Positions 8,210-21,601 of a DNA stretch of 27,564 bases are shown here, in pieces. The position numbers and the translations under genes were made by a program. How positions within the stretch are numbered: the first letter of the stretch is position 1; every line of letters begins with the position of its first letter. The notes beneath the pieces were generated by a model. The model did no database searches, was not told where the DNA came from, and saw only the letters and a list, made by a program, of their open reading frames with translations. Origin of the DNA: Oscillospiraceae bacterium (GTDB lineage: Bacteria; Bacillota; Clostridia; Oscillospirales; Oscillospiraceae); NCBI GenBank assembly GCA_051867655.1, contig JBJDYV010000102.1, positions 1 to 27,564 of the forward strand. The letters run 5' to 3'.

Positions 8210-8803
8210 TTATTTGCACTTCAAAGGGATATTGGGGCCGCTCGCTTCGATCACGGCGTTAATATACCGCATCACCTCTTCCGAAAGGGCCTGCGGCGTA
8301 AAGCGGATGGGATGCAGCATCCAGCTTTTCACAACGGAAATGCAGCCAAAAATCGAGAAAAGGCACACATGCTCGTACTCCTCCGCCGAAACAGGCGGGT
8401 CCCTCTGCATCAGCCTGTGGTCGATATAGGGGAGCAAGATGATCTGCATGGTGCGCTTGGGGAGCATGTAGTCCTCCGATTCGCCCACAGAAAACGCCTG
8501 GAACGCCTGGATGTGGTCGAGAATGTATTGAAAGTGCTTCTCCAGAAGCTGTTTGGTGTGCGGTTCATCATGGCAGGTCTCTTTCGAGGCCAGTTCCTGT
8601 GTCTCCTCGATGATCTCCCGCTCGATTGCATTGAGCAATTCATACTGGCTTCCATAATAGGAGTAAAAGGTGGATCTGCTCACGTTCGCGCGCTCACATA
8701 TTTCCTTGATGCTGATCTGACGAATATTCTGATGCTCCAACAGCTCGATCAGGCTTTGCTTCAGCAAGGCCTGTGTCATTTTGACCCGGCGGGAACTTTT
8801 CAT
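8210..8803 (-). CDS. TetR/AcrR-family transcriptional repressor.
   Basis: An N-terminal TetR HTH (ISIKEICERANVSRSTFYSYYGSQYELL) is present, with an AAGGAGG RBS before MKSSRRV. GC content is visibly lower than in the flanks. It is divergent from the 9046 operon. Confidence 0.85.
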   Translation of the reverse strand: MKSSRRVKMTQALLKQSLIELLEHQNIRQISIKEICERANVSRSTFYSYYGSQYELLNAIEREIIEETQELASKETCHDEPHTKQLLEKHFQYILDHIQAFQAFSVGESEDYMLPKRTMQIILLPYIDHRLMQRDPPVSAEEYEHVCLFSIFGCISVVKSWMLHPIRFTPQALSEEVMRYINAVIEASGPNIPLKCK

Positions 8804-14847: not shown

Positions 14848-14857
14848 GGTATGCCCG
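14848..14857. repeat. Left target-site duplication (GGTATGCCCG) of the inserted element.
   Basis: An identical 10-mer at 21071-21080 abuts the other end. Joining the flanks rebuilds the hairpin AGCCCGGCGGTATGCCCGCCGGGCT, which is present intact at 21568-21598. Confidence 0.75.
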
Positions 14858-14884
14858 CAATGTCAATAAGTTAGGCTGAATCAA

Positions 14885-14909
14885 GGGCCAGATGCTTCGC
14901 ATCTGGCCC
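14885..14909 (+). terminator. Subterminal hairpin just inside the left IR (GGGCCAGATGC-TTC-GCATCTGGCCC). It may insulate the element from read-in transcription.
   Basis: A perfect 11-bp stem lies 27 bp inside the element end. Confidence 0.45.
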
Positions 14910-14995
14910 TTAACACTTTTCTCAAACCCAAGGAGGGCGTTAATTTGTATGCTTTGCTATTGAACTCTGTTCACAAAAGGTTTACATACCACTCA

Positions 14996-15024
14996 TTGAC
15001 AAAATCCTTTTTTCAGTTATACTA
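14996..15024 (+). promoter_or_regulatory. Sigma70-like promoter (TTGACA-16/17-TATACT) inside the element. It drives the leader, the 146-aa ORF and the transposase.
   Basis: It has a consensus -35 and a near-consensus -10. Confidence 0.55.
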
Positions 15025-15142
15025 TGAGTGGCCTTGGTAGCCCAGATAGTTGAGATTTTTGAATTTATTTGTTTTATCGTTTGTTTTATTTAGCCTGAAT
15101 TTTTAAAAACGCCGAGTTGCTATCAATGTGAAGTGTGATATG

Positions 15143-15212
15143 CACCGCGCACGATAAGATGTTTGTCCCGTTGTCGGAGGGGACGCATCTTTCGTGCGCG
15201 GTTTTTGTTTTT
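15143..15212 (+). terminator. Intrinsic terminator or attenuator at the end of a roughly 190-nt U-rich leader. The long stem is CACCGCGCACGATAAGATG...CATCTTTCGTGCGCGG with a nested GTCCC/GGGAC hairpin, followed by TTTTTGTTTTT.
   Basis: An imperfect 17-bp stem is followed by a T-run. It sits between the promoter at 14996 and the RBS of the 15303 ORF. Confidence 0.55.
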
Positions 15213-15302
15213 CCTTTCCAATCACAGGAGCAGACAGGCCTCGGAAGCTGGCTGTCCTGTGCGAGTATCGCTTCCGAATGGAACCAAATGGAGGATAAGT
15301 TG

Positions 15303-15743
15303 ATGAATAAATATAAGATTTTGCGTGTTTTTCTGGCTGTTTTCGTGTCCACCCTCGATGTTTTTGAGAAGGCGGTTTGGGTTGACCTTTCCGCTGATCG
15401 TGACACTTTGGAAGAAGTTGCCGCTGACAAGGCTGCTGTTTTAACCGAGGCTACTAAGGCTCTTATTTGGGAGGCTATCGGTTGCGCCGCTCCTGATATA
15501 AAGGGGGCTTATGTCGAGGTTATGGTTGAGAACCTTGCTTTCGATGGTTACTACAAGGCAGCTGTTCTTCCGCCTGACGTTGCTTTCGATGGTTGGACAC
15601 CTGAACTCAGCGACATGGTGAATGAAAACAGCGGCCTGATAAAAAAAGACTTGACGGCAATGCTGACCGACATGACAACGGCCTACCTCGGTGGTGATAA
15701 CGGAAGGAGCGATCCACATTATGAGATACGTCGCCGCGACTAA
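15303..15743 (+). CDS. Hypothetical 146-aa protein with a hydrophobic N-terminus. Its 3' end overlaps the transposase start by 23 nt.
   Basis: A GGAGGA RBS lies 7 nt before the ATG. I recognise no family signature. The N-terminal hydrophobic stretch (ILRVFLAVFVSTL) suggests a signal or anchor sequence. Confidence 0.45.
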   Translation: MNKYKILRVFLAVFVSTLDVFEKAVWVDLSADRDTLEEVAADKAAVLTEATKALIWEAIGCAAPDIKGAYVEVMVENLAFDGYYKAAVLPPDVAFDGWTPELSDMVNENSGLIKKDLTAMLTDMTTAYLGGDNGRSDPHYEIRRRD

Positions 15744-17013
15744 GGCTGCCCTCGCTGATGCAATCCGCGAGACGGCGGAACAGCATAGCGATGGCAAGCA
15801 GTTCAGTCGTCAGCGTAAGCTGACGCTGGACACCATGCTCCGTTTGCTGATCGGCGCGGAGGGCGGCTCTCTGGCTAAAGTTCTTCGTGAGGCGGGGGTC
15901 GAGGCGACCCCCGCCGCCCTCTCCCAGCGTCGTTCTCAGATTGACCCCAGCGTATTCCGCGAGGTGTTTACGCGCTTCAATGCAGCCTGTACCGATAACG
16001 AAACATTTCATGGCTACCGTGTCCTTGCTGTGGACGGAACCGTGGTTAATATGCCCCGCAACCCAGATGCACCAAGTTTCATACAAAACGACAGTGCGCC
16101 TGCTGGCTACAACCAAATGTTTCTGGTTCCGTTGCTAGACCTTAGAAACTACTGTTATGTAGATGCCGAGGTGACTCCTGCCCCTCAGAAAGACGAAATC
16201 GGTTCCTTGATAACAATGCTTAACCGCAATGACTTCGACAGAAAAACCCTCATTATTGCTGATCGCGGTTATGAGAGCTACAACCTCATAGCACACCTGC
16301 TCAAGAAGCCAAACACGGACTTTCTAATCCGCGTGAAGCAAAATCGCTCTGCAATGCGTGAAGTAGCACGGTTACCCATGCTTGAACTGGACTGCCAGAT
16401 TTCATTTTCCATCTGTACCACTCAAAAAAATTCCGACAAGCAGAACAAAAACTACGTCTTTTTGCAAGTCCCTAAGAAGAGCAAGCCGGAATCAAAAACG
16501 CGCCGTGGGCGCTGGGATCACGATAACTATTTCCCGATGCGGTTTAGAATTTGCCGTTTTCAGCTTGATGCTGGGAACTATGAGACCATTGCGACATCGT
16601 TACCCCAATCCTTCACTTTAGAGGATATAAAGGCCCTTTACCACATGCGCTGGGGCATTGAGACCAGCTTCCGCGATCTCAAGTACACCGTTGGACTTGT
16701 TCATCTTCATGGAAAAAGCGACCAGTTTGTTGAGCAAGAGATATACGCGGCCTTAACCGCTTTTAACTTCGCCAGCCGGATTGTCCGCGAGGTCGTGATC
16801 CAGCAACCGAAAGATGGCGTATATGCTTATCGCGTGAACTTCAAAAACGCTGTGGCGCTTGTGAAAGAGCATATTCGCAACCCGGAATTAGACAACGATA
16901 CACTTGTCCGGGAGATTGCAAAACACACTATTCCGATTAGACCGGGGCGGCAGGATCGCCGCAATCTCAAAGTCAAAGGCTTTGTGGGCTTTACCTATCG
17001 AATTGCAGCCTAA
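15721..17013 (+). CDS. IS4-family (DDE_Tnp_1) transposase.
   Basis: The C-terminus has the diagnostic YHMRWGIETSFRDLK (Y-2-R-3-E-6-K) block. Spaced D, D, E residues (ILAVDGT; IIADRGY) and an N-terminal FSRQRKLT-type motif are present. A GGAAGGAG RBS is present. Confidence 0.85.
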   Translation: MRYVAATKAALADAIRETAEQHSDGKQFSRQRKLTLDTMLRLLIGAEGGSLAKVLREAGVEATPAALSQRRSQIDPSVFREVFTRFNAACTDNETFHGYRVLAVDGTVVNMPRNPDAPSFIQNDSAPAGYNQMFLVPLLDLRNYCYVDAEVTPAPQKDEIGSLITMLNRNDFDRKTLIIADRGYESYNLIAHLLKKPNTDFLIRVKQNRSAMREVARLPMLELDCQISFSICTTQKNSDKQNKNYVFLQVPKKSKPESKTRRGRWDHDNYFPMRFRICRFQLDAGNYETIATSLPQSFTLEDIKALYHMRWGIETSFRDLKYTVGLVHLHGKSDQFVEQEIYAALTAFNFASRIVREVVIQQPKDGVYAYRVNFKNAVALVKEHIRNPELDNDTLVREIAKHTIPIRPGRQDRRNLKVKGFVGFTYRIAA

Positions 17014-17503
17014 CCCGAAAAAAGACAGGGGGCGCTTCCAGACGGAAGTGCCCCCTGTTGGCATTTATTTTTTGAAAACCCTGTTTTTGGCGTTCAAAAG
17101 GGGCTATTTTCAAAAAATAAATGTGTGCCCTATCTCAATAGACCAGAAAAGCCACCGAAATAGTGGAACGCCTGTCAGCCGATTTCAACAAGTATTGCAA
17201 ATCTGGCAGAAAAGAGCCTGTCTCCCTGCAAAACTGAATAGGAATGTCAATCGCAGTTTTTGAGCAAAGAATCAACTAGCCGGACAGATGCAGTAAAAAT
17301 AGAGGTTGTGAGTTTTTAAGGGGTGGGCATTTTTTGAAAAATCAGCCGCTCCGGTGTCCGTTAACTTAAGGAAATCGTAGAACTATCAACTAGCTGGCAA
17401 AAAGTATTAGAAATTAGCGCTGTTTACAAAAAATCGCGATAGCGCACCTCTTTTCAAACTTCGCAATAACTTGCGAAAAAAATAATTTTTTTGAGAAACT
17501 ATA

Positions 17504-17532
17504 TTGAATTTTGTCGCAGATTGGAATATCAT
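17504..17532 (+). promoter_or_regulatory. Sigma70-like promoter (TTGAAT-17-TATCAT) for the cargo operon. A small palindrome, CGCAATAACTTGCG, lies about 30 bp upstream.
   Basis: The hexamers sit 39 bp upstream of the XRE gene start. The palindrome is at 17463-17476. Confidence 0.5.
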
Positions 17533-17570
17533 AAAATTGTCCATTTAACTTCCAGTATGAGGTTTATATT

Positions 17571-17786
17571 ATGAAAATCAGCTACAAGAAATTGTGGATC
17601 ACGCTGATCGAGCGGGATATTAGTCCTGCCACGCTCCGCAAAGACTTGAATATTGCTACCGGAACAATGACAAAGATGCGCCGGAATGAGGAAGTGGCAC
17701 TGTCTGTCCTGTTGCGGATATGCGAGTATCTGGATTGCAATATTGGCGATATTTGCGATGCTGTAAGAGTAACTGAAGAAATGTAA
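17571..17786 (+). CDS. Small XRE/Cro-C1-type helix-turn-helix transcriptional regulator (HTH_26-like, 71 aa).
   Basis: The pattern MKISYKKLWITLIERDISPATLRKDLNIATGTMTKMRRNEEVALSVLLRICEYLDCNIGDI matches short stand-alone Cro-like HTH proteins. Confidence 0.8.
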   Translation: MKISYKKLWITLIERDISPATLRKDLNIATGTMTKMRRNEEVALSVLLRICEYLDCNIGDICDAVRVTEEM

Positions 17787-17811
17787 ATAATGTTTGTGGA
17801 GGAATAATAAA

Positions 17812-18033
17812 ATGAAGAATATTCTGGAATTATTTGGTTCGGAAAGCAGCAAACCCAGTATTACGAAAAAAACTGGGATTTTAACGAAACCGGGAGATAG
17901 ATTGGAAGCATATATCACAAAGTCTGGAAGAAATGTGCTAAAAGTACAAAAAGACAACGGAAATTCCAAATATAGTATAACTCAATACCCAACTGGGACT
18001 ATTGTTGAAACAAAAGTGACAAAAAAGAAATGA
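17812..18033 (+). CDS. Hypothetical 73-aa Lys-rich protein.
   Basis: A GGAGGA RBS lies 8 nt before the ATG at 17812. Coding potential is good and no family is recognised. Confidence 0.5.
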   Translation: MKNILELFGSESSKPSITKKTGILTKPGDRLEAYITKSGRNVLKVQKDNGNSKYSITQYPTGTIVETKVTKKK

Positions 18034-18082
18034 TTTTGATAAGGCTGTTGCAGGGATTTTCGATTGAAGGAGTGAACTTACT

Positions 18083-18988
18083 ATGGCATTTTGCGTTAAC
18101 TGCGGGCATGAAGTTCCAGACGGCGCAAAATTCTGTGCAAACTGCGGTGCGGCGGTAAATAGTGCAAATTCCGGTGCGCAAAGAAAAACAGTCTATGAGG
18201 GTGAAATGCACAAGTGCCCTAATTGTGGCGAAGTTCTCAATTCTTTTGTATCTGTATGTCCAGCGTGCGGATATGAACTAAGAGGAACAAAAGCATCGAA
18301 TTCTGTTCATGAGTTTGCGCTAAGATTAGAGAGGGCGCAATCAGAGGAACAAAGAATTACGCTTATTCGCAATTTCCCTATTCCCAATACAAAAGAAGAT
18401 ATATTCGAGTTTATGATTCTTGCATCAACCAATATTTCTGGAGAATATCAAAAGATTGTTTTCGATGCGTGGTTGGCTAAGTTTGAGCAGAGCTATAAAA
18501 AAGCAAAGCTGGTTTTTAGCAATGATTCTGATTTTGTCAAGTTTCAAAGCATATACGAACAGACCAACAAACAGATTAGCAAAGAGAAAAACATCCGTAC
18601 CGCTAAGACCATAGGCAATACTATTTCCAAATCCGCGCCCGCTTTACCTCGAATTGCTGTGTCTATTGGCTGGCTTATAAGTATCTTTGTTTTGATCCCA
18701 CTATGTGGAAGTAATCTTGATGTTGCTGGAACTAACTCCTATCAATTATTGCTGATAGTCGATTTTATTGCGGGCGCAATCGTATTGCCGTGGATTATTA
18801 GAGGAAAATCAAGTATTCCAGCTCTAATTACAGCGGTTGGTTTGATGATAAGCATAGTTGTGTTAATTCCTTTGTGTGGAAAAAACTTGGATGTCGCCGG
18901 CACAAATGCTTATCAATTAATTTTGATTATTGATATTGTTGCGAGTGTTGTAATTTTTGTTCGGGCCTTTAAAAAGAGAAAAGGATAA
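18083..18988 (+). CDS. Double zinc-ribbon membrane protein with a C-terminal internally duplicated 2-TM hairpin (B. subtilis YdjG/YdjH-like architecture).
   Basis: Two CxxC...CxxC ribbons are present (CVNCG...CANCG; CPNCG...CPACG). Two roughly 45-aa repeats (ISIFVLIPLCGSNLDVAGTNSYQLLLIVDFIAGAIVLPWIIRGK and ISIVVLIPLCGKNLDVAGTNAYQLILIIDIVASVVIFVRAFKK) are about 70% identical. An AAGGAG RBS is present. Confidence 0.75.
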   Translation: MAFCVNCGHEVPDGAKFCANCGAAVNSANSGAQRKTVYEGEMHKCPNCGEVLNSFVSVCPACGYELRGTKASNSVHEFALRLERAQSEEQRITLIRNFPIPNTKEDIFEFMILASTNISGEYQKIVFDAWLAKFEQSYKKAKLVFSNDSDFVKFQSIYEQTNKQISKEKNIRTAKTIGNTISKSAPALPRIAVSIGWLISIFVLIPLCGSNLDVAGTNSYQLLLIVDFIAGAIVLPWIIRGKSSIPALITAVGLMISIVVLIPLCGKNLDVAGTNAYQLILIIDIVASVVIFVRAFKKRKG

Positions 18989-19009
18989 ATCTGCATAGGA
19001 GGATATTTC

Positions 19010-20368
19010 ATGAGTTTATTTGGTAAAAAAACCGGCGGATTCATGGACGAAATCCGCTGTGACGAACCGAATTATTTGATTTGGAAATGGCATCCTGCCG
19101 ACTCTCAGAAAGGCACGAACAACCGGGAAAATGCTATCCGGTGGGGATCTTCTCTGCGCGTAAAAGACGGCGAAGTAGCAGTATTTGTCTATAAGCAGAA
19201 AGACGGCACTATGCAGGATTTCATTGTTGGCCCATTCGACCAGATCATCGAAACCGCAAACTTCCCTGTATTGGCAAGCATCGTCGGCTTGGCCTATGAT
19301 GGCGGCACTCCGTTCCAAGCAGAGGTTTACTTCATCAATCTGGCGCGAATTATCCAAGTGAAGTTTGGCGTACCGTTCTTTGATGTTTATGACCCGAGAT
19401 TTGCCGATTTTGGCGTTCCTGTTGCTGTCAGAGGTACGGTCAGCTTCCAGATTTCCGACTATCGGGAGTTCATCAAGCTACATAGGCTCAACAGCTTCAA
19501 CTTGGAGGATTTCCAGAAGCAAATCCGCGATGCGGCATGCCGCTATGTCAAAGATGCTGTCGCTAACGCACCTGCCGCCAACAACATCCCCGTTGTCCAG
19601 ATTGAAAGCAAGACGGCGCAGATCAACGATGCCGTAGAGTACGATATTAGCGAACGTCTGAAAGAGGACTTTGGCGTCACGGTTTCCGGCGTTGATATTG
19701 GTGCGATTGAGATTGACAAATCCAGCGATGGATATGCTCAGCTTATGGCGATTACACAGCAAGCCACCGCCGCAACTGTGCAGGCACAGACCGCCGCTAA
19801 TATTAAGAATATCCATGATAAGCAGCGGATTGAAGCCGAGAACTACGAAGAAACGCTCCGTATTCAGCGTGAAGAAGCGCAGTATGCCCAGCATAAGCAG
19901 ACGCAGAGCGCCCACTTTACGGCATTCCAAGTGGAAAAACAAGCGGAAGTCGGCGTAGCTGGTGCGGAAGCACTGGGCCAAATGGGCGCAAACGGCGCTG
20001 GAACGGTTGATTTCGGCAGTGGTGGAACTGGCTTTAATCCCGCCGCTATGATGGCTGGCATGGCCGTTGGCGGCGCTATAGGTCAGAATATAGCTGGCAC
20101 GATGAATAACATGATGTCTGGCATGAACCAGCCGACAGGAACTACACCGCCGCCCGTTCCTGTTGTCGCGTACCATATCGCCGTGAACGGTCAGGCAACA
20201 GGGCCGTTTGACCTTGCCGTATTGAAGCAGATGGCCGTTTCTGGACAGCTTACGGCCAGCAGCTTGGTCTGGAAAGCTGGAATGAGCGAATGGGCCAAAG
20301 CAGAAACGGTTGACGAGTTAAACACTCTGTTTGCAAACGCAATGCCGCCTATTCCCCCTACTGAATGA
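19010..20368 (+). CDS. Soluble SPFH/band-7 family protein (B. subtilis YdjI-like, the so-called virion core protein family) with a C-terminal DUF4339/GYF-like domain.
   Basis: The N-terminal block has the family pattern (F.DEIRCDEP...LIWKWH...LRVKDGEVAVFV...GPFDQIIETANFPVL...FQAEVYFINL...FGVPFFDVYDPRF). A Q/A-rich coiled-coil linker and a Gly/Met-rich low-complexity segment follow, then a C-terminal DUF4339 signature (YHIAVNGQATGPFDLAVLKQMAVSGQLT..SLVWKAGMSEWAKAETV.EL). An AGGAGGA RBS is present. Confidence 0.8.
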   Translation: MSLFGKKTGGFMDEIRCDEPNYLIWKWHPADSQKGTNNRENAIRWGSSLRVKDGEVAVFVYKQKDGTMQDFIVGPFDQIIETANFPVLASIVGLAYDGGTPFQAEVYFINLARIIQVKFGVPFFDVYDPRFADFGVPVAVRGTVSFQISDYREFIKLHRLNSFNLEDFQKQIRDAACRYVKDAVANAPAANNIPVVQIESKTAQINDAVEYDISERLKEDFGVTVSGVDIGAIEIDKSSDGYAQLMAITQQATAATVQAQTAANIKNIHDKQRIEAENYEETLRIQREEAQYAQHKQTQSAHFTAFQVEKQAEVGVAGAEALGQMGANGAGTVDFGSGGTGFNPAAMMAGMAVGGAIGQNIAGTMNNMMSGMNQPTGTTPPPVPVVAYHIAVNGQATGPFDLAVLKQMAVSGQLTASSLVWKAGMSEWAKAETVDELNTLFANAMPPIPPTE

Positions 20369-20377
20369 GGGAATTCT

Positions 20378-20938
20378 ATGAAAGTTAAATCATTGAAATG
20401 CCCCGAATGTAGAGCGAACCTTGAAATCGAAGATGATCGCACATCTTGTTATTGTCAGTACTGCGGATGTAAAATCATTCTTGATGATGAAAAACAAGAG
20501 TACACCATCAACAAAAACATCAATGTAAACAAGAACATCCACAAGAGATATACTGATGATGCGGATGTAATCCGTGCCAAAAACGAAGCAAGTAAAGACA
20601 GCAGAGATTTCAAACAAATGCTCATTCTTTTGGGATTTATGATGCTGATTCCCATCAGCATTTTCCTTGGTTTGCATATCAATAAAACAATTGCACAATA
20701 TGAAGGAAAAATCAGCGCCGGCTATTACAAGGACTTAGTTGGCAAGGATTATGAAACGGTCGCGGCTCATTTTGAAGCTGCGGGGTTTACTAATATCGAA
20801 CTGATTGATTTGGATGATTCGGGTCTTGCGTTTTGGAATGAAGGAAAGGTAGATACCATTTCAGTTGGCGGCGATACAGATTTTGAGAGCGTAGACTGGT
20901 TTTATCCAGACACAAAAGTAGTTATTTCGTACCATTGA
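20378..20938 (+). CDS. Zinc-ribbon single-pass membrane protein with a C-terminal extracytoplasmic domain.
   Basis: An N-terminal CPEC...CQYCGC ribbon, one TM helix (MLILLGFMMLIPISIFLGL) and a roughly 90-aa C-terminal domain are present. The start sits 10 nt after the SPFH stop, with a GAGGGA RBS. Confidence 0.7.
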   Translation: MKVKSLKCPECRANLEIEDDRTSCYCQYCGCKIILDDEKQEYTINKNINVNKNIHKRYTDDADVIRAKNEASKDSRDFKQMLILLGFMMLIPISIFLGLHINKTIAQYEGKISAGYYKDLVGKDYETVAAHFEAAGFTNIELIDLDDSGLAFWNEGKVDTISVGGDTDFESVDWFYPDTKVVISYH

Positions 20939-20987
20939 AACTTTCCTTTTCGGAAATTCTCCTGGTTCCGCCAACTGAATAATGAAG

Positions 20988-21040
20988 AAAAAAGCACCCA
21001 CCCTGATTTCCAAGAGGAAAAGGGGGTGGGTGCTTTTTGT
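20988..21040 (+). terminator. Intrinsic terminator of the cargo operon (AAGCACCCACCC...GGGTGGGTGCTTTTTG), just inside the right IR.
   Basis: A 12-bp stem is followed by a T-run, and it sits 50 bp after the last cargo gene. Confidence 0.75.
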
Positions 21041-21051
21041 TAGACGCTCAA

Positions 21052-21070
21052 ATGCTTAAGTTAATGACAT
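21052..21070. repeat. Right terminal inverted repeat of the inserted element (GCTTAAGTTAATGACATTG).
   Basis: Its reverse complement matches the left end (14858-14876) at 16 of 19 positions. It is followed immediately by the GGTATGCCCG TSD (21071-21080). Confidence 0.7.
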
Positions 21071-21244
21071 TGGGTATGCCCGCCGGGCTTTTCTGAGACT
21101 GTTAAAAAAGTCTTTCGGACTTTTCCGACAAAAGAATGCAGCCCGCCGCAGCAATCATCGGGCGTTGCGCTGCTTTTCTTTCATTCTATGTCTGACAGAG
21201 CATTTAAAAATATTGAAGCTGGTATAATTCCCGAATTCACACCA

Positions 21245-21424
21245 TCATTTCTCTGTTTCCGCGTCTGAATCAGAATCCCTGCGTGTCTGACTTTCGGCCT
21301 GTTTCGCCTGTTTTTCCTTTTGGAATTGTGCAAAAAATTTTTCTCCGATCATGCATGTGAGCCGATCCGCCGTGCAAGCATTGCGGCAGCCGGGGCATTC
21401 AAAAAAATCCGGGTCGTACATCAT
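21245..21424 (-). CDS. Hypothetical 59-aa Cys-rich small protein (MMYDPDFFECPGCRNACTADRLTCMIGEKFFAQFQKEKQAKQAESQTRRDSDSDAETEK). It falls below the ORF-track cutoff.
   Basis: A GAAGGAA RBS is present. The protein has a CPGC-x3-C-x6-C metal-binding-like N-terminus and an acidic, Ser-rich tail. Its promoter carries the perfect palindrome TTGCAATAGATTGCAA over the -35 (about 21470-21500). Support comes from these reading-frame and signal cues only. Confidence 0.4.
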   Translation of the reverse strand: MMYDPDFFECPGCRNACTADRLTCMIGEKFFAQFQKEKQAKQAESQTRRDSDSDAETEK

Positions 21425-21567
21425 TCATCGTTCCTTCTCTGTTGAAATGCGCTTTCAAGACATCTTCATTTATAAAATATATCAAGAATTGCAATCTATT
21501 GCAACTGCTGTTTTTTATTTTGTGAAGTTGTTCTTGATCCGCTTTCCGGAAAAAAATTTTTGACAAG

Positions 21568-21600
21568 CTGAAGCCCGGCGGTATGCCCGCCGGGCTTTTC
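21568..21600. terminator. Intact GC-rich hairpin (AGCCCGGCGG-TATG-CCCGCCGGGCT, then TTTTCTTT). It is an intrinsic terminator downstream of eutQ and the second copy of the hairpin that the transposon split at 14841/21071.
   Basis: It is 30 bp identical to the rebuilt target of the insertion, and a T-run follows it on the plus strand. Confidence 0.6.
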
Positions 21601-21601
21601 T

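Follow-up and report, generated by a model that had tools for sequence, protein, structure and literature searches.

An IS4-family transposon carrying a gene pair for a zinc-ribbon membrane protein and a soluble SPFH-GYF protein, with a conserved candidate operator upstream

The locus and its cargo operon

The window considered here, the whole stretch of DNA that was analysed, comprises 27,564 nucleotides (nt) from an Oscillospiraceae bacterium (GenBank assembly GCA_051867655.1, contig JBJDYV010000102.1, positions 1 to 27,564 of the forward strand). Region 14858–21072 of the window is a 6.2-kb transposon of the IS4 family, and a five-gene module at 17571–20938 is its cargo. The module consists of five co-oriented open reading frames (ORFs) on the + strand, separated by gaps of 9–49 nt, for a small helix-turn-helix (HTH) regulator (ORF1), a Lys-rich protein (ORF2), a membrane protein with a double zinc ribbon and four transmembrane (TM) segments (ORF3), a soluble SPFH protein with a C-terminal GYF domain (SPFH-GYF; ORF4) and a second zinc-ribbon membrane protein (ORF5). 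An earlier note on this DNA, made from the sequence alone, had described five tightly spaced genes with good ribosome-binding sites (RBSs) and a promoter and terminator of their own. All of these elements are present, with a Shine-Dalgarno sequence 7–10 nt 5' of every ATG (GAGG, GGAGG, AAGGAG, AGGAGG and GAGGG), and the cargo unit reaches further back than the bounds given earlier, to a candidate operator at 17461–17476. The features of the cargo, with lengths in amino acids (aa), are:

17461–17476, strand not applicable: candidate palindromic operator TCGCAATAACTTGCGA, ~28 nt 5' of the -35 box, from the alignment of upstream regions
17504–17532, +: sigma-70-like promoter, TTGAAT-17-TATCAT; the aligned position has the consensus TTGACA...TATAAT across 46 loci
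17571–17786, +: ORF1, HTH_26 Cro/C1-type regulator, 71 aa (Pfam)
17812–18033, +: ORF2, Lys-rich, 73 aa, accessory; no Pfam family, GGAGG RBS
18083–18988, +: ORF3, double-zinc-ribbon 4-TM partner, 301 aa (Pfam, TM segments, AlphaFold2 model)
19010–20368, +: ORF4, soluble SPFH-GYF protein, 452 aa (Pfam, fold matches)
20378–20938, +: ORF5, zinc-ribbon/1-TM accessory partner, 186 aa (TM segment; C-terminal PHROG match)
20989–21038, strand not applicable: strong hairpin terminator that closes the cargo operon, with 23-nt arms that are 87% complementary; kept in the related copies L011 and L107

Transposon borders and related copies

The module is transposon cargo, as the earlier note had proposed, because it shares the region with an IS4-family transposase, terminal inverted repeats (IRs), a 10-bp target-site duplication (TSD) and a low GC content, and because sister copies of the element are found elsewhere. 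The features of the element outside the cargo are:

14848–14857, strand not applicable: left copy of the TSD, GGTATGCCCG, 10 bp, left half of a terminator hairpin that the insertion splits
14858–14876, +: left terminal IR CAATGTCAATAAGTTAGGC, followed by a subterminal hairpin; the end architecture is homologous in L011
15303–15743, +: small ORF of 146 aa that overlaps the transposase start, without Pfam or PHROG match
15721–17013, +: IS4-family DDE transposase, 430 aa from the ATG at 15721 (longest ORF from 15691), from profile matches
17024–17059, +: hairpin terminator 3' of the transposase gene, a 16-bp stem with 10 GC pairs and then a T-run
21054–21072, -: right terminal IR (reverse complement CAATGTCATTAACTTAAGC), from the alignment of the ends and from copies elsewhere
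21073–21082, strand not applicable: right copy of the TSD, GGTATGCCCG, from the reading of the junction

The transposase scores 170.3 bits with NF033592 (transpos_IS4_1; cut-off 115) and 84 bits with DDE_Tnp_1 of Pfam, and an orthologue is encoded at loci L011–L013 (E = 1e-254). The IRs are imperfect, with the first 8 nt the same at both ends and matches at 15 of 19 positions; when the 30-nt end windows are aligned, 17 of 30 positions match. The left junction reads CGGCGGTATGCCCG followed by the element end CAATGTCAATAAGTTAGGC, and the right junction GCTTAAGTTAATGACATTG followed by GGTATGCCCGCCGGGC. Joining the flanks without the transposon gives AAGCCCGGCGGTATGCCCGCCGGGCTTTTCT, a terminator hairpin that is the same as an intact copy at 21571–21601. 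The border is ambiguous by 1 nt, and the shifted border gives a TSD of 11 bp. The island has a GC content of 39–50%, against 60–65% for the chromosome, and is flanked on the left by an SSB-like gene and genes for an M19 dipeptidase and an MFS transporter, and on the right by an ethanolamine-utilisation operon (EutQ, EutH and others).

Two groups of related copies were found. The sister transposon at L011–L013 consists of the transposase gene (73% nt identity) and the genes for the HTH regulator, the zinc-ribbon TM protein and the SPFH-GYF protein, without ORF2 and ORF5; in L011 the conserved terminator and the right end, in a diverged form, stand directly after the SPFH-GYF gene. L107, L108 and L110 carry the five-gene version at 80% nt identity to the transposon of the window, and in L107 and L108 the right IR is intact and adjoins a flank different from that in the window. 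Since these related copies keep the element ends around the cargo at other sites, the cargo lies inside the element. A megablast comparison of the whole element with plasmids gave no match, and an empty target site was not found in the one collection scanned, the JGI metagenomes.

Both characterised copies, that of the window and that of L011 (~2860–2878 / 8450–8470), sit inside GC-rich rho-independent terminator hairpins, which suggests that this transposon family has a target preference for terminator palindromes. The 31-nt hairpin is present a second time, intact, at 21571–21601, 490 bp from the split copy. Between the split and the intact hairpin (21073–21601) lies a low-GC segment with a 59-aa, CxxC-containing ORF (21245–21424, - strand) that belongs to no Pfam family; this segment may be a further small insertion or a duplicated terminator. 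The 146-aa ORF at 15303–15743, pieces of which are conserved in the sister element of L011 (3256–3471 and 3619–3744), is possibly an upstream ORF that accompanies the transposase gene. Between the transposase and HTH genes (17062–17123; 17271–17414) stand two repeats, an inverted one of 17 nt that is perfect (CATTTATTTTTTGAAAA / TTTTCAAAAAATAAATG) and a direct one of 30 nt (ATCAACTAGC...).

Conservation and distribution of the gene pair

The conservation of the module was assessed by phmmer at the 80 best loci from GTDB species-representative genomes; 46 of these loci are cut short by contig ends. A gene for an ORF3-like zinc-ribbon TM protein adjoins the SPFH gene in 77 of the 80 loci, and the other three are cut upstream by a contig end. 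An ORF1-like HTH gene is present in 41 loci and an ORF5-like gene in eight; neither ORF2 nor the transposase was found at any of the 80. Clustering of neighbouring genes across the loci revealed nothing conserved beyond the zinc-ribbon TM protein, the SPFH-GYF protein and the HTH regulator. The conserved unit is the pair of the zinc-ribbon TM and SPFH-GYF genes, often with the HTH gene (below, the cassette), and only this transposon lineage has the five-gene version. Conservation of all five genes as a unit, as the earlier note had supposed, did not hold up, the full order being found only in the ~80%-identical copies.

The pair is widespread. A word-indexed search with ORF4 returned at least 8000 candidates at E <= 1e-10, of which the best 120 are mostly ~80% identical, and an exhaustive search gave 218 clusters at 50% identity (E <= 1e-30). 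Relatives of ORF4 occur in at least 589 GTDB species representatives, gut and oral bacteria, and are found at 55–80% identity across Bacillota, Actinomycetota, Bacteroidota and Spirochaetota; such identity across phyla argues for horizontal transfer of the core pair. Carriers include isolates (Streptococcus sanguinis, S. gordonii, S. equinus, Gardnerella, Collinsella, Adlercreutzia, Ruminococcus flavefaciens and Massilicoli) and metagenome-assembled genomes (MAGs) assigned to Bacteroides and Treponema.

A recombinase or mobilisation gene (serine recombinase, TnpV, Mob_Pre, relaxase or integrase) lies within 6 kb in 22 of the 80 loci. Large serine recombinases (14 loci), TnpV, Mob_Pre, MobA/VirD2 relaxases and tyrosine integrases are minor recurrent neighbours. 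In L040, L018, L020 and L034 the cassette stands directly 3' of Mob_Pre and/or TnpV, the order in L040 being Mob_Pre-TnpV-HTH-ZnTM-SPFH (ZnTM, zinc-ribbon TM gene); we take this place to be the cargo position of resistance genes in Tn4451-type mobilisable transposons. In L047, L049 and L054, from genetically tractable isolates of S. sanguinis and S. gordonii, mutS and mutL flank the pair and the HTH_26 gene is absent. A tblastn comparison of ORF4 with plasmids returned only distant SPFH proteins (~30%). The sole phage match by tblastn, MT835670.1 (L094; 'UNVERIFIED: Bacteriophage sp.'), was rejected as evidence of phage carriage: it is probably a mislabelled bacterial scaffold, which encodes GGDEF, ABC transporter, LytTR two-component, bactofilin and polysaccharide deacetylase proteins and has no phage hallmark genes.

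These data bear on the alternative that the genes are the ordinary chromosomal ydjGHI homologue of the lineage or stand together incidentally. Membership of ORF4 in Band_7_1 and its zinc-ribbon membrane neighbour do recall ydjG-ydjI of Bacillus subtilis. However, the genes lie between transposon IRs with a TSD and differ from the host by ~15–20% GC, the same cassette is found at unrelated sites in several phyla, and the adjacency of the pair in 77 of 80 loci excludes chance juxtaposition. This alternative, which retains next to no probability, is refuted by the transposon borders and by the distribution over many sites and phyla, in agreement with the earlier note, which had taken the module for mobile cargo.

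The SPFH-GYF protein

ORF4 matches Band_7_1 (PF13421) over residues 39–235 with 80.4 bits (cut-off 24) and GYF_2 over residues 388–437 with 68.8 bits (cut-off 25.8). No 19-residue segment reaches a Kyte-Doolittle value of 1.6, and the protein has no TM segment. Thus, the central protein of the module is a soluble SPFH protein with a C-terminal DUF4339/GYF-like domain, as had been read from the sequence earlier. YdjI of B. subtilis presumably belongs to PF13421 as well; the papers say only 'band 7'.

The SPFH domain is followed by a long helix (residues 240–325), a low-complexity linker rich in Gly, Met, Ala and Asn, a PPPVP motif, the GYF_2 domain and a PPIPP tail. There is no CxxC motif in the C-terminus and hence no C-terminal zinc ribbon. 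The SPFH core and long helix give fold matches to prohibitin, stomatin, flotillin, HflK/C and QmcA, and the C-terminal domain to GltJ and to Smy2/eukaryotic GYF domains that were solved with proline-rich peptides. The GltJ GYF domain was also the sole match when the sequences of the cargo proteins were searched against the PDB. The prolines that flank the GYF domain (PPPxP before, PPxPP after) are invariant or nearly so in homologues of 38–88% identity; such near-invariance on both sides of the domain suggests that they could serve in self-association or gating. At eight loci (L069, L072, L074, L080, L081, L083, L085 and L093; Coriobacteriia and one Bacteroidetes MAG) a separate ORF of ~116–126 aa that matches the GYF region lies 3–16 nt 3' of the SPFH-GYF gene. 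Seven stand-alone GYF_2 proteins are recognised by Pfam.

The zinc-ribbon partners and ORF2

ORF3 consists of a double zinc ribbon (residues 1–67; DZR, Zn_Ribbon_1 twice and Zn_ribbon_3), a cytoplasmic helical domain (residues 73–183) and four TM segments (residues 191–296), in which a 2-TM hairpin is duplicated (55% identity over 49 aa, E = 7e-21). The AlphaFold2 model has a predicted local distance difference test score (pLDDT) of 82, and its middle domain is all-helical. In a set of 121 partner proteins (ORF3 and 120 from the loci), the part equivalent to residues 1–180 is the conserved one, being present in about 85–100 proteins, and double zinc ribbons (DZR/Zn_ribbon) occur in ~90. The partners otherwise vary, with lengths of 210–790 aa, one to five TM segments and different outer domains (DUF6591 in 20, TM2 in 6, DUF4839 in 5 and PASTA in 4). 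They have a median identity of 43%, compared to 71% for the SPFH proteins, and the SPFH protein is the more conserved in all 77 of 77 pairs.

ORF5 contains an N-terminal CxxC...CxxC zinc ribbon, one TM segment (residues 81–99) and a PASTA-like extracytoplasmic domain (residues 118–186), and belongs to no Pfam family. The SPFH gene is accordingly flanked on both sides by genes for zinc-ribbon membrane proteins, one with a duplicated hairpin, as the earlier note had stated. The C-terminal domain of ORF5 (~70 aa) matches phrog_29396 (E = 1.3e-13), the only useful PHROG result for the five proteins. Other partners have this domain too, often as tandem copies, at positions that coincide with PASTA matches close to or under threshold; only in L080 is the gathering cut-off exceeded. 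The ORF5 family is a second, accessory partner type, which is absent from the L011 sister transposon.

Both the HTH gene and the Lys-rich peptide gene that the earlier note placed at the head of the module are present, although ORF2 measures 73 aa, not 79 aa, from its true ATG at 17812. ORF2 belongs to a narrow family of small proteins (43 homologue clusters) with the core PGDRLEA..T.S.R.V.K.QKDNGNSKYSATQYP.GT.VETKVTKKK. Some relatives (among L095–L102 and L111–L113) stand behind DUF2992 on integrative or mobilisable elements, directly before SIR2_2 and a HerA-like ATPase (DUF87/HerA_C), and others between ParE/Phd and GmrSD_N-HEPN-AbiTii. Relatives also occur in SPFH modules, and behind DUF2992 without defence genes downstream. 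The idea of ORF2 as a 'defence-cassette leader' was toned down because relatives are also found on elements without downstream defence genes. ORF2 marks cargo regions of mobile elements rather than defence as such, and is an accessory gene outside the core.

Neighbouring genes and a possible role in defence

The unequal divergence of the two core proteins is one of several observations that favour an alternative function, an anti-phage or anti-mobile-element system that resembles abortive infection. The zinc-ribbon TM partner would be a sensor of infection or a membrane-disrupting effector, an SPFH-GYF cage would restrain or activate it, and the HTH protein would hold the toxic module in a repressed state. 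The swapping of partner ectodomains (DUF6591, DUF4839, PASTA-like, TM2), the spread of the cassette by horizontal transfer on mobile elements, and the presence of the ORF5 ectodomain family in phage proteins (phrog_29396) are consistent with such a role. The 132 nearest neighbours (<= 1.8 kb) include AbiD/Abi_2 (3), AbiLi (2) and AriA-like ATPases (4), as well as PDC-S04/S22/S30, a type IV restriction endonuclease, type I restriction-modification (RM) genes and PbeA; one lineage adjoins a type I-C CRISPR-Cas system. Additionally, relatives of ORF2 head the SIR2_2/HerA-like ATPase and GmrSD_N-HEPN-AbiTii cassettes, and in B. subtilis the membrane partners are unleashed once the SPFH protein is lost (bioRxiv 10.64898/2026.02.06.704340).

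However, a search of PADLOC-DB v2 gave no match for ORF1–4 and only chance-level matches for ORF5 (E >= 0.01), and the literature searched on SPFH, GYF_2 and DUF4339 shows no link of such modules to defence. The cassette contains no enzymatic effector or NTPase. The defence neighbours are a minority, given as raw counts without a background control and confounded by the mobile-element context, and relatives of ORF2 also occur without defence genes, ORF2 itself being found at none of the 80 species loci. The streptococcal module between mutS and mutL does not lie in an obvious defence island. A defence function, the main rival of the protective scaffold proposed below, is possible but less likely. 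The suggestion of phage defence in the earlier note keeps a genuine if modest association with some Abi and RM neighbours and with the contexts of ORF2 relatives, while none of the five proteins is a PADLOC match.

Regulation

ORF1 matches HTH_26 of Pfam with 63 bits and, with a median identity of 86% in the 41 loci that have it, is the most conserved protein of the module. Its score with VanU, 72.4 bits, is below the NCBIfam equivalog cut-off of 150; ORF1 is VanU-like and not a VanU equivalog. When the regions 5' of the HTH gene were aligned, a palindrome, TCGCAA-N4-TTGCGA, emerged a short distance 5' of the TTGACA/TATAAT promoter. When the 160 nt upstream of the HTH start codon were searched with up to two mismatches, TCGCAA-N3-5-TTGCGA was found in 38 of 46 loci, compared to 0.023 matches expected per 160 nt; the spacer is N4 in 37 of the 38, and the position is mostly 96–126 nt 5' of the start codon. 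The candidate operator at 17461–17476 is the sole match within the window. Promoter-like sites as a class showed no enrichment over shuffled sequences. From the recurrence of this palindrome before the HTH gene we infer that ORF1 is probably the module's own regulator.

The tight conservation of a repressor-like HTH protein and its operator, together with the strict pairing of two genes carried by transposons and by mobilisable and ICE-like (integrative and conjugative element) elements, would also fit an addiction or stabilisation module, in which an unbalanced partner is toxic, the SPFH protein neutralises it and the element is retained with no benefit to the host. In B. subtilis, the effect of deleting samI requires samH, and without the SPFH protein the membrane partners are reported to be out of balance (bioRxiv 10.64898/2026.02.06.704340). 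Nevertheless, large scaffold proteins of an abundant type are unlike typical toxin-antitoxin pairs, features of a labile antitoxin are not evident, and many copies, such as those of streptococci and Gardnerella, seem to be fixed in the chromosome. An addiction module is therefore improbable.

Proposed function

By analogy with the YdjGHI system of B. subtilis, since renamed SamGHI, the cassette is tentatively interpreted as an XRE-regulated, mobile membrane scaffold that may protect the envelope without an operon-encoded PspA. The cytoplasmic head of ORF3, with its two zinc ribbons and helical bundle, would recruit the TM-less ORF4 to the inner face of the membrane, where the SPFH domain and long helix could assemble into a ring or cage, like other SPFH proteins. 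The GYF domain may bind the flanking proline motifs or a host ligand and in this way cross-link or gate the assembly. The fast-evolving TM region and ectodomain of the partner would set where, or in response to which envelope signal, the scaffold forms, with ORF5 as a possible extra partner that has a PASTA-like ectodomain. For the host, the likeliest gain would be tolerance of membrane or envelope damage, with antimicrobial peptides, bacteriocins, bile, alkaline stress and phage lysis-type stress as conceivable stressors.

The absence of a PspA partner, which the earlier note had remarked on, was borne out within the operon, the window and 93 loci: phmmer searches with E. coli and B. subtilis PspA probes found none at E <= 1 in the 93 loci or at E <= 10 in the window, and Pfam scans of the window found no PspA family. 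Several points weigh against a protective scaffold of this kind. Recruitment, oligomerisation and the protective phenotype are all drawn from the analogy with YdjG/H-YdjI (SamGHI). The AlphaFold2 model of ORF4, built on a shallow alignment of ~80%-identical sequences, has an overall pLDDT of 55, and only its SPFH core and GYF domain are usable. The absence of PspA depends on the probes used, and PspA may be encoded elsewhere in the host genome. No TPM/YdjH-type protein was found among the five window proteins or the top 25 families of the 121 partners, so that the cassette is without the component that contacts both YdjI and PspA in B. subtilis. Finally, the rapid diversification of the partner and the presence of some Abi and RM neighbours fit a conflict system at least equally well.

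SPFH/flotillin-like scaffolds are ubiquitous and their roles in bacteria are poorly understood, and the one TM-less member that has been studied, YdjI/SamI, has mostly been interpreted via PspA. New here is an autonomous cassette of a zinc-ribbon TM protein and an SPFH-GYF protein, found in at least 589 species, that has no operon-encoded PspA, brings a presumed regulator and operator with it and carries a GYF domain where YdjI has a zinc ribbon. Its wide spread implies a portable selective benefit, because transposons and mobilisable elements have carried it into that many species. Being minimal and transferable, the cassette lends itself to the question of how an SPFH scaffold acts alone. 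The asymmetric evolution of a conserved scaffold and a fast partner, and the mobile and defence-rich contexts, make it a reasonable candidate for a function in envelope immunity. It is conceivable, though unlikely, that the pair is a widespread mobile membrane immune module, in which the variable partner detects phage or bacteriocin attack and the SPFH-GYF cage executes protection or an abortive collapse of the membrane; if so, it would be the first of a class of defence or immunity systems that are based on an SPFH scaffold and independent of PspA/ESCRT-III.

Comparison with known systems

In line with the earlier note, which had not recognised the arrangement as a named system, no published or PADLOC-listed match was found. 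The closest comparison is with PspA-YdjGHI/SamGHI. In B. subtilis, YdjI, which recruits PspA, depends on the membrane proteins YdjG and YdjH for its membrane localisation (PMC8581546). YdjG combines two zinc ribbons with an NTF2-like domain and a TM segment; the TPM domain belongs to YdjH (PMC11237479). A 2026 preprint, in which the system was renamed SamGHI, describes PspA-independent phenotypes (bioRxiv 10.64898/2026.02.06.704340).

The cassette shares with this system a TM-less SPFH protein of the Band_7_1 type, composed of an SPFH domain, a helix, a low-complexity linker and a small C-terminal adaptor, and the position of its gene directly after that for a membrane protein with two N-terminal zinc ribbons. 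However, the adaptor is GYF_2 in the cassette and a zinc ribbon in Bacillus, and the middle of ORF3 is an all-helical bundle, followed by a duplicated 2-TM hairpin, in contrast to the NTF2-like/YpeB-related middle of YdjG. The cassette has a putative HTH_26 regulator and operator of its own, whereas the Bacillus system is controlled by sigma-W, and it is mobile across phyla, whereas the Bacillus system is a chromosomal regulon member. Thus, of the YdjGHI-like parts listed in the earlier note, the two N-terminal zinc ribbons of ORF3 stand, while its middle domain differs and an equivalent of YdjH/TPM is missing. On the best reading, the cassette follows the YdjGHI/SamGHI principle in outline and lacks several of its features.

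The pairing of an SPFH scaffold with a dedicated membrane partner in two genes, and the fold of the SPFH core and long helix, are also found in SPFH-NfeD (E. coli QmcA-YbbJ) and HflK/C-FtsH. In these systems, however, the SPFH proteins are self-anchored and the partners are NfeD, with an OB-fold, or the FtsH protease. No NfeD was found in ORF3, ORF5 or the listed top 25 (of 52) families of the 121 partners, and neither an NfeD nor a protease domain was found in the cassette. GltJ of the Myxococcus gliding machinery likewise combines a zinc ribbon and GYF_2 on the cytoplasmic side of a membrane protein that organises a sub-membrane complex, and its GYF domain is the best match, in sequence and in structure, of that of ORF4. 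In the cassette, by contrast, the zinc ribbon and GYF domain are on two proteins and there is no motility context; the likeness is confined to the domains.

As a mobile element, the transposon resembles IS4-family elements with passenger genes (transporter IS or unit transposons) in its DDE transposase, CA-type termini, 10-bp TSD and passengers between the IRs. It differs in that the passenger is a membrane-scaffold cassette, not a resistance gene, and in the insertion of both characterised copies into terminator hairpins. In other species the cassette resembles the cargo of Tn4451-type mobilisable transposons, standing beside Mob_Pre/TnpV or large serine recombinases.

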